Numbered from the stretch's first letter, positions 32,818-38,417 are shown. The stretch is 64,000 nucleotides of DNA from Candidatus Babeliales bacterium (GCA_019746485.1 JAIERW010000022.1:3280-67279), one strand, 5' to 3'. Notes: generated by a model from the letters alone, not told the origin. A program made the numbers and translations.

Positions 32818-33705
32818 ATGATTAAAAAAATTTCAACAGTACTTTCATGTACGCTATTGCTTGCAAATTCAGCGTGGGCAGCAACATTTTCTTTGTCTCC
32901 TGAAGAGCGTGAAAAAATCATAGAGCGCGAACTTGATCGGTGTGAGGGACCGCGCCGTTGGCGCCCGTGGTCAAACGAGGAATATTGTAAGAACATGGCG
33001 CAACCATGGACAGGCAAAACCCCCTTGCATATAGCGATAGAAAAAGGTTACTTAGCAGAGATTCGCACCTTTGCTGCGCAAGGTTACGACCTCAATACTG
33101 CTAATCGGTGGGGTGAAACCTTTTTGCACGATGCAGCGGAGTTGCGCAAATCAGAGGTCTTTGATTTGTTGATTGAGCTTGGTGCTAATCGCTATGTCGG
33201 CGACAAAAAAGGTCGGCTTGCCTGGCCAGAGCGCCAAATGGTGTTGGCGGCACAAGTAGGCGACCTTGAGGTAATGCAGCAGTTGTACGCACCTGGTGCG
33301 AGCCTTGAGGCTTACATGTGGAATTTTCACAATAAAGTTGGGTTGTCCGTGCTACACTTGCTCGTGCTGAGTCGCAACTACGAAGCGTTGCGGTGGGCAT
33401 GCACTGAATTGCGCAGAAAATTCAAATCTCTTAATCCTACGTGTGGGGTTGGCTATGAAAAATGGACGCCGCTTTACTATGCCGAGTATCTGCACGATGA
33501 GCAAGCACAGGAAATTTTGCGTGATTTTAAAGCCCATGTTCGGTATGGGCAGCAGGAAGTGCGTGAAAATGAGCTAGAAGATGATCATGCTCAGCTACCA
33601 CCACATGAAAAATTTGCACTTGGTAGTAGCGTTAAGGCTCTTGAGTCGGTTCCTGGAGGGATTTCTTATAATAGTTCGAGTAACGATGGTTGTTGTATTC
33701 AATAG
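32818..33705 (+). CDS. Secreted ankyrin-repeat protein, type A, ending in the CaaX box CCIQ
   Basis: Signal peptide MIKKISTVLSCTLLLANSAWA. TPLHIAIEKGY. Family motif GRLAWPERQMVLAAQVGDLEVM. The C-terminus is ...SSSNDGCCIQ* (33691-33702). Confidence 0.88.
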   Translation: MIKKISTVLSCTLLLANSAWAATFSLSPEEREKIIERELDRCEGPRRWRPWSNEEYCKNMAQPWTGKTPLHIAIEKGYLAEIRTFAAQGYDLNTANRWGETFLHDAAELRKSEVFDLLIELGANRYVGDKKGRLAWPERQMVLAAQVGDLEVMQQLYAPGASLEAYMWNFHNKVGLSVLHLLVLSRNYEALRWACTELRRKFKSLNPTCGVGYEKWTPLYYAEYLHDEQAQEILRDFKAHVRYGQQEVRENELEDDHAQLPPHEKFALGSSVKALESVPGGISYNSSSNDGCCIQ

Positions 33706-33723
33706 AAAAATATAGGAGTAACT

Positions 33724-34653
33724 ATGATTTCAAAAGTTTCAAAAGTAGTAGCACTTTCTTTATTGCTCGGTAGCCCCGTGTGGGCAGCGTCGAGCAGTTC
33801 ACGAGTGGGTGGGGGCTTGAGCAGCGTGTGCACGTCTGGCGAGAAATGCTTTCTTGCCGTTGAGCGTGGCAATACCACAGCGCTTGCCAAACATTTGCTT
33901 TCGTTACAAATGTCTGCCGATGATGTGCGCAAGCCTCATGGTTCGACATTGCTGCACTGGGCAGTGCTGCATGAACAGCTTGGCGTGATCAAGTGGTTGG
34001 GTGAAAACGGCGATTCTGACTTGGTTAATGCACAAGACAACAAAGGCCGTACCCCCCTGCATCTTGCGGCAAAAAAAAGACAAGTGAGTATCGTCAAGGC
34101 TTTATGGGAGTATTTTGAGGGTGTTGATCTTAACATCCAAGATGAAACTGGTGCAACTCCGGTGCATGGTGCGGTGATGGCAGGGCTCAAAGATACGGTG
34201 CTTTATTTGTGTGAACGTTTTGGGCTTGATGTTGATGTGCGTGATTTTACCGGCTTTACGCCATTGCGCTATGCGACCATAGATCGCTTTGCAAGTATTG
34301 CCGAGCAATTGGCAGTTGTTGATGCACTGATCAAGTGTGGTGCTAACAAAAATGCCTTCAATGCTGCTCCCTATGCTCGTCTGTGCTTTGCAGCGGCTCA
34401 AGGCAATGTGCTAGGCATGAGTGCTGCACTGACAATGGGTGCCGATCTTAACGCACCAGATGCCAAGGGTTGTTCGCCGTTGCATTATGCGGTAATGAGC
34501 AAAAATCTTAATGCAATTGCATTTTTATTAGAACGGCGTGTTCTTATTGACGTAAAAAATAATGCCGGTGAAACGCCATACAACATTGCAGAACAATTGC
34601 AAGATGAGGGTGCAAAGCAGCTTTTGCGGTTTTATTCTGAGCAGTCACGTTAA
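33724..34653 (+). CDS. Secreted ankyrin-repeat protein, type B (no CaaX box)
   Basis: Signal peptide MISKVSKVVALSLLLGSPVWA followed by ASSSS. At least 6 ankyrin repeats (GRTPLHLAAKK, GATPVHGAV, GFTPLRYAT, GCSPLHYAV, GETPYNIA). Confidence 0.88.
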   Translation: MISKVSKVVALSLLLGSPVWAASSSSRVGGGLSSVCTSGEKCFLAVERGNTTALAKHLLSLQMSADDVRKPHGSTLLHWAVLHEQLGVIKWLGENGDSDLVNAQDNKGRTPLHLAAKKRQVSIVKALWEYFEGVDLNIQDETGATPVHGAVMAGLKDTVLYLCERFGLDVDVRDFTGFTPLRYATIDRFASIAEQLAVVDALIKCGANKNAFNAAPYARLCFAAAQGNVLGMSAALTMGADLNAPDAKGCSPLHYAVMSKNLNAIAFLLERRVLIDVKNNAGETPYNIAEQLQDEGAKQLLRFYSEQSR

Positions 34654-34682
34654 CCAAAACTAACTAACAAGGAAAAATATTT

Positions 34683-36657: not shown

Positions 36658-36686
36658 ACAACATTAACTAACGAGGAAAAATAGTT

Positions 36687-37574
36687 ATGATAAAAATTAC
36701 AAAAGTCTTGTTGTGTGCTTTGTTGTTGAATGCTGGTCTTTGGGCTGTTGCGCCGAGCAGTTCGTCAAGAGAAGAAACAGAAGAGCTTGCTGCAGCAGTG
36801 GCTGGGTTGTCCCTTGATGATGCTTCTTGTAACTCTTTGAAGCAAACACTGCTTCATCGTGCGGCCGAACAGGGTAATATACAAGCTATTTACCAGTTGG
36901 TTGTTGAGCAAGGAGCTCCAATGAACGTGGGTGATTGGATGGGTCAGACCCCGCTGCATTATGCGGCTATACGTCAGTATAAGCGGCCAGAGGTGTTTGA
37001 CTTATTGATTGAGTTGGGTGCTGACCGGTACGCGTGCAACAATTGCGGTAAGCTTGCTTGGCCAGAAAGACAAATGCTTTCTGCTGCCGCGTCTGGCAAT
37101 CTTGAAGTTATACAAAGGTTGGTTGACGCAGGTGCTGAATTGGATGTGGATGATGTATTTCAAAATAGGAATCATGTTTTGCACTTTCTTGCGGCGAGTC
37201 GCAATCATGAAGCTTTGCGCTGGGCGTGCCAAGTTATGCGTGACAGCAAGAAAAAATCGGTTGATGTCGAGAATTATGACTGGGTTACGCCGCTGCACGT
37301 AGCTGCATATTATAAAGATAAAGTGGCAATGGAAATATTGATATCGTTTGGTGCCGACAAGTCCAAGTGTGCTCGTGGTGCCTCGTGGGAGAATTATTGG
37401 CACTATCTTGGCGATGAAGTTACGTTTGCCGATGGAGCCAAAGTTAAGGGGCTGCTGCCGCCGCCAACGGTTATTCTCAAGGGTGGTAAATTAAGTAATA
37501 TGACGGCTGATTACCACAATGGCCAAGTTGTACAGTATGGAAATGGTGGTGGTGGTGATTGCGCGCTGTTGTAA
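36687..37574 (+). CDS. Secreted ankyrin-repeat protein, type A, ending in the CaaX box CALL
   Basis: Signal peptide MIKITKVLLCALLLNAGLWA. The leader DNA is nearly identical to that of 34683. GKLAWPERQMLSAAASGNLEVI. The C-terminus is ...GGGGDCALL* (37560-37571). Confidence 0.88.
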   Translation: MIKITKVLLCALLLNAGLWAVAPSSSSREETEELAAAVAGLSLDDASCNSLKQTLLHRAAEQGNIQAIYQLVVEQGAPMNVGDWMGQTPLHYAAIRQYKRPEVFDLLIELGADRYACNNCGKLAWPERQMLSAAASGNLEVIQRLVDAGAELDVDDVFQNRNHVLHFLAASRNHEALRWACQVMRDSKKKSVDVENYDWVTPLHVAAYYKDKVAMEILISFGADKSKCARGASWENYWHYLGDEVTFADGAKVKGLLPPPTVILKGGKLSNMTADYHNGQVVQYGNGGGGDCALL

Positions 37575-37592
37575 ATTAAGATTGGAATAACT

Positions 37593-38417
37593 ATGATTTT
37601 AAAAATTTCAAAACTGTTTGTGTTTATTTTATTGCTGAGTGCCAATGTGTTTGCTGCAACAGAAGCTTTGCAACCTTGGCAAGAAGTTGCTGCCAAGATG
37701 GCAAAATTGTCGATTCATGATAATACTTTTGCGGATAAAATGTGGAAAGAAACACCGCTTCATCGGGCTGCCAAAACTGGTGACACAGATGCCATTTACC
37801 TGATGGTTGTTATGCAAAAATCTGATATAAACGCACGTGATGCTTGGGGGCGTACGCCATTGCATTATGCCGGTTGTATTCTCCATCAGAGACCAGCAGC
37901 ATTTGACGAGTTGATTCGGCTGGGTGCCGATCGTTATGCTCTCGACAAAGATGGTAAACTTGCTTGGCCAAAAAGGCAAATGCTTTGGGCTGCCAAGGCT
38001 GGCGATCTTGCTGTTATGAAAAAGTTATATGAGTTGGGTGTTGATGTGGACGTGGCGACTAGTTATCTGGAGTATACGTGTGGTAGCGGAGAGCCTGCGA
38101 ATCATCTGTTGCACCTTCTGGTAGCGAGTCGTAACCATGCCGCTTTGCGCTGGGCTTGCTGGATTATGCAGCAGCAAGGCAAGTCAGTTGATGTTGATAA
38201 TGAGCTCTTTGGTAGCAACGCTACGCCGTTGCACCATGCAGCTTATTTTAATGACGGAACGGCATTCGACATTTTGGTAGAGTTTGGTGCTGATAAAAAC
38301 AAGAGCAATTCTCGGGGTGCATTGTGGGCTGACTTTCACCAACTAGGATTGAAGGAGCGGGGGCAATCTGTTCACTCTGTAGGAAGTGGCGAAGGAGATA
38401 GTTGCTTGATATTGTAA
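37593..38417 (+). CDS. Secreted ankyrin-repeat protein with a type-A body, a type-B-like leader and the CaaX box CLIL
   Basis: Signal peptide MILKISKLFVFILLLSANVFA (B-like). GKLAWPKRQMLWAAKAGDLAVM (A-type). The C-terminus is ...GEGDSCLIL* (38403-38414). Confidence 0.88.
   Translation: MILKISKLFVFILLLSANVFAATEALQPWQEVAAKMAKLSIHDNTFADKMWKETPLHRAAKTGDTDAIYLMVVMQKSDINARDAWGRTPLHYAGCILHQRPAAFDELIRLGADRYALDKDGKLAWPKRQMLWAAKAGDLAVMKKLYELGVDVDVATSYLEYTCGSGEPANHLLHLLVASRNHAALRWACWIMQQQGKSVDVDNELFGSNATPLHHAAYFNDGTAFDILVEFGADKNKSNSRGALWADFHQLGLKERGQSVHSVGSGEGDSCLIL

Follow-up and report, generated by a model that had tools for sequence, protein, structure and literature searches.

Salmonella SifA, a type III secretion substrate, is a bacterial effector with a C-terminal Cys motif that is geranylgeranylated and S-acylated by host enzymes. 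In Legionella pneumophila, the Cys of the C-terminal CaaX box (Cys-aliphatic-aliphatic-X) of AnkB and of the Pel/CMP proteins was shown to be required for prenylation by the host and for anchoring to membranes (PMC2916131, PMC13081727). Described here is a six-gene ankyrin array at positions 32818-38417 on the + strand of a 64,000-nucleotide stretch of DNA from Candidatus Babeliales bacterium (GCA_019746485.1, JAIERW010000022.1:3280-67279; this whole stretch is called the window below). Four of its proteins, referred to as type A, combine a predicted signal peptide with a C-terminal CaaX box, and two, referred to as type B, have no box. Judged from their sequences, the type-A proteins are held with moderate confidence to be effectors that are exported by the Sec pathway and a type II secretion system (T2SS) and prenylated by host farnesyltransferase (FTase) or geranylgeranyltransferase-I (GGTase-I). 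As the best explanation of the locus, the data suggest an operon of secreted host-interaction proteins of a Babeliales parasite of protists.

How does the array compare with the systems already described? Legionella is similar in being an amoeba-adapted intracellular bacterium whose proteins pair eukaryote-like domains (ankyrin in AnkB) with a C-terminal CaaX box, and in having several such proteins in one strain, with both farnesyl-type and geranylgeranyl-type boxes. However, the array proteins have classical signal peptides, and the phylum has been reported with Sec and T2SS only; furthermore, the array contains no F-box, and with the NCBIfam Legionella Ank models the scores (16-44 bits) stay far under the cut-offs (450-1400). 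Orthology to AnkB was rejected on the grounds that the F-box is missing and the ankyrin similarity is sub-threshold only. SifA is a parallel as an effector with a host-lipidated C-terminal Cys motif, but contains neither ankyrin repeats nor a signal peptide. The array would be a variation on the CaaX strategy of Legionella and Salmonella, of which no report was found for this phylum. Among eukaryotic CaaX proteins, PDE6-alpha (CCIQ), PDE6-beta (CCIL), PTP4A1 (CCIQ), Rap2A (CNIQ) and Rap2B (CVIL) have tetrapeptides identical or nearly identical to those of the array, with the same choice of a C15 or C20 lipid according to Q or L (PMC7674641). These host proteins are made in the cytosol, whereas the array box sits on a bacterial protein that must first exit the bacterium.

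Dependentiae, a phylum of protist parasites, is widespread and has hardly been cultured, and its genomes are rich in signal-peptide ankyrin proteins. Proteins of the window are 100% identical to entries of Candidatus Babeliales bacterium (MBX9831143.1, MBX9831147.1), a member of this phylum (Dependentiae/TM6). The ankyrin secretomes described for Babela and Chromulinavorax, from the same phylum, likewise combine signal peptides with ankyrin repeats in many paralogues, for which export to the host cytoplasm by Sec and T2SS or by vesicles has been proposed. They differ from the array in that no C-terminal prenylation box is mentioned for them: the words "prenyl" and "farnesyl" each occur 0 times in the Babela paper (PMC4378268), and "prenyl" occurs 0 times in the TM6 comparison (PMC4776705). 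A literature search returned no paper pairing Dependentiae with CaaX, or Babela with prenylation.

The ankyrin array

A first-pass annotation, made by a model from the sequence alone, had described six co-directional ankyrin genes separated by 18-29 nt, and this layout is borne out by the open reading frames and their Pfam matches. Six ankyrin open reading frames, all co-directional, occupy the + strand from 32818 to 38417, with spacers of 18, 29, 28, 29 and 18 nt in array order, and Pfam ankyrin models match all six proteins (E 1e-13 to 1e-42). The same annotation's account of the C-termini, with CCIQ, CSIQ, CALL and CLIL after a flexible stretch in the four type-A proteins and no box in type B, also proved correct. 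Gene A1 (32818-33705, +) encodes a 295-aa protein with signal peptide codons at 32818-32880 (MIKKISTVLSCTLLLANSAWA), a Pfam Ank_2 match (E 6.5e-16) and CCIQ at 33691-33702. The other type-A genes are A2 (34683-35561, +; 292 aa), with signal peptide codons at 34683-34742 and CSIQ at 35547-35558; A3 (36687-37574, +; 295 aa), with signal peptide codons at 36687-36746 and CALL at 37560-37571; and A4 (37593-38417, +; 274 aa), with signal peptide codons at 37593-37655 and CLIL at 38403-38414. In array order, the type-A proteins end in GCCIQ, GCSIQ, DCALL and SCLIL, each followed directly by the stop codon, and a Gly/Ser/Asp-rich stretch precedes each box. The interleaved type-B genes are B1 (33724-34653, +; 309 aa; signal peptide codons 33724-33786), ending in YSEQSR, and B2 (35590-36657, +; 355 aa; signal peptide codons 35590-35652), ending in IRASAR; both are without CaaX, and there is no Cys near either C-terminus.

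Signal peptides were called by eye on n-, h- and c-regions and the AxA motif, together with a hydropathy heuristic, and on these features the Sec-type N-terminus that had been noted for every array protein is upheld. All six N-termini show the pattern MI-K-I/V-S/T-K, followed by a hydrophobic core of 9-12 residues and an (A/V/L)-x-A cleavage motif. Cleavage is predicted, in array order, at SAWA/A, PVWA/A, GLWA/A, SVWA/A, GLWA/V and NVFA/A, where the slash marks the cut. Judging from its length, the hydrophobic core is too short to serve as a membrane anchor. A lipoprotein (Lgt/LspA) reading of the N-termini was rejected, the cleavage regions being of the form WA/A or FA/A, with no Cys at +1 and no lipobox. 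Signal-peptide-like N-termini were counted by a rough hydropathy heuristic in about 27 of the 43 window genes, among them an ankyrin-RING gene, three WD40 genes and two ankyrin genes outside the array.

The other type-A proteins are 38-45% identical to A1 (paralogue range overall, 38-50%), and B1 and B2 are 62% identical to each other. Every array spacer contains a ribosome-binding motif, GGA or GGAG, upstream of the ATG, and the leader regions of all six genes, comprising ribosome-binding site and signal-peptide codons, are alignable with a mean column identity of 67%, indicating that the array grew by tandem duplication. The six genes probably constitute one operon. Between the array and the convergent trxB gene lies a perfect 21-bp hairpin (38434-38484) flanked by an A-run and a U-run, with an RNA fold of -32.5 kcal/mol (z = -7.0 versus shuffles), which is probably a bidirectional intrinsic terminator closing the operon. 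It was missed by a simple terminator scan because its loop is 9 nt. That scan revealed no comparable hairpin between array genes, and its sole + strand terminator-like match is weak (6 pairs, 38228-38242) and lies inside gene A4. Transcription of the array may possibly start upstream, by read-through from the sua5 and DHH genes 28 nt away. The GC content of the array (0.46) is slightly higher than that of the adjacent 2-kb bins (0.40-0.44).

Retention and recognition of the boxes

The type-A family was found to comprise eight members among 5.8 billion proteins, four here and four in the Babeliales assembly GCA_019749895.1, where a syntenic array is flanked by the same DHH and trxB genes and contains seven genes in the order A-B'-B-A-B-A-A. 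Array copy number differs between the two genomes, the second (L001 4869-11740) having an extra 400-aa ankyrin gene (5796-6998, ending in GLGDDE) with no counterpart in the window. Cys at position -4 is present in 4/4 type-A orthologue pairs (A1 and P0007, CCIQ/CCIQ; A2 and P0003, CSIQ/CSIV; A3 and P0002, CALL/CNLL; A4 and P0006, CLIL/CLIL). It is present in 8/8 family members, representing four paralogue lineages in two genomes, and in 0/5 type-B proteins of both genomes. Conservation of this Cys in orthologues and paralogues was one of the checks named in the first-pass annotation, and it extends to every one of the eight members. In the eight-sequence type-A alignment, one Gly and the box Cys are the only invariant positions of the last 80 columns, and the tails diverge around the box, carry indels and vary in length, by as much as 25 residues. 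The a2 position is I or L in 8/8 members, and the class of X is the same in three of the four orthologue pairs (Q/Q, L/L, L/L).

Variation within the box is also synonymous, with TGC or TGT for Cys and with CAA/CAG and TTG/CTG for X; the stop codon varies as well. Between array genes and their orthologues, the ratio of nonsynonymous to synonymous substitution rates (dN/dS) is 0.20-0.42, with amino-acid identities of 61-86% and a dS of 0.29-0.76, versus a dN/dS of 0.03-0.13 and identities of 78-99% for five flanking housekeeping genes. The array genes evolve 3-10 times faster than their neighbours and, given this high dN/dS, the box has been retained within fast-evolving genes. Overall, the type-A boxes look functional, not accidental; comparison of sequences supports the CaaX case well, though thinly, and mainly through retention over four old paralogue lineages.

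Searches for further members were negative. None was found by a type-A profile search of species-representative genome contigs, nor by a DHH-based synteny scan of species-representative genomes, in which the query peptides were poorly conserved N-termini. A metagenome scan yielded eight loci, all of them unrelated generic ankyrins of differing GC content and none with a box. In an exhaustive profile search of 1.8 billion representatives, which was swamped by giant multi-repeat ankyrin proteins, the full-length matches were the known members only. Inspection by eye of 52 generic ankyrin matches (P0009-P0060) revealed no clear C-terminal CaaX box among them, and CaaX is therefore not a general ankyrin feature.

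Are the boxes of the kind that prenyltransferases accept? Box competence was taken from published lists by tetrapeptide look-up. CCIQ occurs natively in farnesylated PDE6-alpha and in PTP4A1/PRL-1, and the pairing of PDE6-alpha with geranylgeranylated PDE6-beta (CCIL) exemplifies the Q-versus-L switch (PMC7674641). CSIQ, CSIV, CALL and CLIL belong to the experimentally positive set of a yeast prenylation study (PMC9231725 S1 File), while CCIQ (0.995) and CAIQ (0.99999) are predicted to be prenylated and cleaved (PMC9231725 supplements). The earlier caveat that X = Q is only a weak to moderate FTase determinant was too cautious, because Q boxes are documented or predicted substrates: CCIQ is farnesylated in PDE6-alpha, CSIQ is yeast-positive, and the predictions for CCIQ and CAIQ are 0.995 or higher. 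Rab GGTase needs a Rab/REP complex, and a Rab-type CCXX reading of CCIQ was rejected for this requirement.

In an AlphaFold2 model of A3, made on the eight-sequence alignment, an N-terminal helix corresponds to the signal peptide and is followed by an ankyrin core at residues of about 30-229, with a block-mean predicted local distance difference test score (pLDDT) of about 70-94. The tail (residues 230-295, ~65 residues) has a pLDDT of 29-47, and the box stands at its end. By this model, the type-A tail is probably flexible and presents the box as a prenyltransferase substrate needs. A Foldseek search with the array model matched DARPins, gankyrin and other ankyrin domains only.

Within the window, Cys at -4 occurs in 5/43 genes, where a Cys frequency of 1.32% predicts 0.57 (binomial P 2.6e-4). 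The first-pass annotation had counted four CaaX proteins; the four in the array are confirmed, and a fifth case was missed. This is a 1225-aa signal-peptide protein of no known fold, encoded at 40224-43901 (- strand), which ends in STWCAIQ (box codons 40227-40238). Neither Pfam nor NCBIfam has a family that matches it, and it may be a fifth CaaX protein, though a candidate without comparative support.

Export route, proposed pathway and alternatives

In Babela massiliensis, signal peptides were found on 79 of 126 ankyrin proteins, and the T2SS was the only secretion system detected (PMC4378268). The TM6 core genes include T2SS components and two gspD copies (PMC4776705). In Chromulinavorax destructans, signal peptides were found on 44% of coding sequences and on 78% of 98 ankyrin proteins, and vesicles bud from the cell, which is located in the cytoplasm of its host (PMC6561590). 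For both organisms, the authors proposed secretion to the host's cytoplasm, by Sec and type II secretion in Babela and by Sec in Chromulinavorax (PMC4378268, PMC6561590, PMC4776705). The signal peptides of the array had at first been regarded as an unexplained oddity, a view that does not stand, as most Dependentiae ankyrins carry one and a Sec/T2SS route was already proposed; knowledge of the phylum largely resolves this puzzle.

Two other genes of the window bear on export. The gene at 53376-54584 (- strand) encodes a GspF/PilC-family protein, the inner-membrane platform of a T2SS or of type IV pili (Pfam T2SSF E 7.5e-46; 213.9 bits with NCBIfam GspF and 216.1 bits with HofC, under the equivalog cut-off in each case), and this protein may belong to the route of export across the outer membrane. 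No type III or type IV secretion genes were found within the 64-kb window. The gene at 15624-18299 (- strand) encodes an 891-aa protein with a signal peptide (N-terminal MFKKLAYSLFVALALTANALPA), ankyrin repeats (about 7 units; Pfam Ank_2 9.6e-81) and a RING finger (zf-RING_2 7.1e-8), and its product is a putative secreted E3-ligase mimic. Since a RING is useful only alongside ubiquitin machinery, a signal-peptide ankyrin-RING protein would be meant for the host (eukaryotic) cytosol.

Prenyltransferases are cytosolic eukaryotic enzymes, so that conservation of a CaaX box in a protein exported by Sec implies arrival in the host cytosol. In the proposed pathway, the Sec signal peptide would direct each protein across the inner membrane and then be cleaved, and the protein would exit from the cell, probably via the phylum's T2SS or outer-membrane vesicles, to arrive in the host cytosol. 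There, the disordered type-A tail would offer the box to host prenyltransferases, with CCIQ and CSIQ going to FTase and CALL and CLIL to GGTase-I. Lipidation would probably be followed by -aaX cleavage and methylation at the endoplasmic reticulum, and the outcome would be an ankyrin domain of ~200 residues held by its lipid on the cytosolic side of host endomembranes, binding host proteins there. The extra Cys of CCIQ is a second-signal candidate in A1 only, and the type-B proteins would work in soluble form. The broader proposition is that Dependentiae, for which no injection system has been reported, deliver Sec/T2SS proteins to the host cytosol, and that a subset with CaaX boxes of both lipid classes is anchored there by host farnesyl- and geranylgeranyltransferases; it is given an even chance.

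If host prenylation of the array proteins is correct, the box would be the first sequence-level marker of which "secreted" Dependentiae proteins act in the cytosol, and the array the first case of CaaX mimicry beyond injected type III and type IV secretion effectors. A signal peptide, a disordered tail and a CaaX box would together form a search rule for cytosol-acting effectors of uncultured intracellular bacteria, and whether Dependentiae Sec substrates enter the host becomes a simple experimental question. If it is refuted, the invariant Cys would indicate a new bacterial C-terminal processing signal.

Several points weigh against host prenylation. The enrichment P of 2.6e-4 overstates independence because four of the five Cys(-4) proteins are paralogues, and the C-terminal Cys of the fifth (40224-43901) is missing from its only homologues (P0122, P0123) and from its two window paralogues. 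The family is confined to two closely related genomes and its eight members are a thin sample. The orthologue-only test is weak: the box is 87.5% identical and the tail 66% (P about 0.05), and counting only that all four Cys residues are kept gives P about 0.19. CNLL is absent from the published substrate lists compared. A majority of CXXX sequences are reportedly accepted by yeast FTase, and with Cys at -4 given, box competence has little power to discriminate. With regard to the route, Babela massiliensis grows within a vacuole (PMC4378268); in such a life, the T2SS would deliver to the lumen, and one further, unexplained membrane crossing would be needed. In addition, the box Cys would have to survive oxidation in the periplasm, and the type-A proteins hold several other Cys residues.

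Some of these points favour the alternative that survives best, in which the C-terminal Cys has a non-lipid role, such as a disulfide with an array protein or a host surface protein, metal binding or redox sensing, in the periplasm, the vacuole lumen or outside, and the likeness to CaaX is incidental. An oxidising compartment lies on the route, several Cys are at hand in the type-A proteins, the box rule is permissive in that most CXXX look competent, and the orthologue statistics are weak. However, such a role has no need for the exact -4 register in 8/8 members, for I or L at a2 in 8/8, or for an X class kept through synonymous changes, and in the model the Cys sits at the tip of a tail predicted to be disordered rather than within folded structure. 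This alternative is considered unlikely.

A pathway like MYXO-CTERM is the most interesting bacterial-only alternative, and slightly more doubtful than the non-lipid role. The exported Cys would be lipidated by a bacterial enzyme, a CPBP protease would trim the end, and the T2SS would display the ankyrin domain on the bacterial surface. Proteins of the MYXO-CTERM/myxosortase system have a Sec signal peptide at the N-terminus and an invariant C-terminal Cys (CC in TraA), and their display on the surface depends on the T2SS; the Cys is proposed to be lipidated first and the protein then cut by an Rce1-related CPBP protease of the CaaX-protease family (PMC11980579). The array shares with it the signal peptide and the invariant Cys, and has a GspF/PilC gene nearby. 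[quoted passage not shown] No NCBIfam sorting-tag model matches the array proteins, and no CPBP protease is encoded within the 64-kb window. MYXO-CTERM membership itself was rejected, the transmembrane helix and Arg cluster being absent. No bacterial enzyme is known to attach a lipid, in the periplasm, to a Cys placed four residues from a free C-terminus.

Least probable of the three is that the ankyrins reside in the envelope without host exposure (for example, as periplasmic inhibitor or immunity proteins), with an N-terminal signal peptide or uncleaved anchor and the box as a neutral leftover copied by tandem duplication: a periplasmic ankyrin self-protection protein does exist in Bdellovibrio, as cited in PMC6561590, the alignable spacers and leaders of the six genes point to recent tandem duplication, and the family is limited to two genomes, but the paralogues are only 38-50% identical, with tails of varying length, yet share the Cys, which apart from one Gly is the sole invariant residue of the final 80 columns, the orthologue dS of 0.29-0.76 comes with synonymous changes inside the box, and RING and WD40 domains on neighbouring signal-peptide proteins make sense only in the eukaryotic cytosol.

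Other genes of the window

The 64-kb window contains ten ankyrin genes. Besides those of the array and the ankyrin-RING gene, two more with signal peptides were found (11512-12468 and 26947-27546), and one, at 9153-10583, has no clear signal peptide. Three tandem genes at 738-8967 (- strand) encode signal-peptide WD40/beta-propeller proteins of 905-922 aa, all ending in KLFYNNVS, a eukaryote-like secreted family. The gene at 10593-11471 (- strand) encodes a signal-peptide protein with an apolipophorin-like helical region and an Hsp20/alpha-crystallin domain, an unusual secreted small heat-shock-like protein.

The protein encoded at 40224-43901 is the first of three tandem paralogous giant signal-peptide proteins of 1225, 1359 and 1167 aa (40224-51509, - strand), with a common N-terminus, MKF/LLR...IKDIKGTW. 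These paralogues match no Pfam or NCBIfam family, and a CaaX-like end (CAIQ) is present only in the first. Their homologues were found only in the same Babeliales lineage, P0122 and P0123 coming from one other contig of the same assembly and one contig from a public sequencing run.

The GspF/PilC gene is flanked by tRNA genes, with tRNA-Leu(CAA) at 53213-53299 on one side and tRNA-Arg(ACG), tRNA-Ser(GCT) and tRNA-Ser(TGA) at 55022-55611 on the other. A PD-(D/E)XK nuclease-family transposase-like protein is encoded at 22645-23586 (+ strand), and a Fic/DOC-domain protein with a C-terminal HTH domain at 56455-57549 (- strand).

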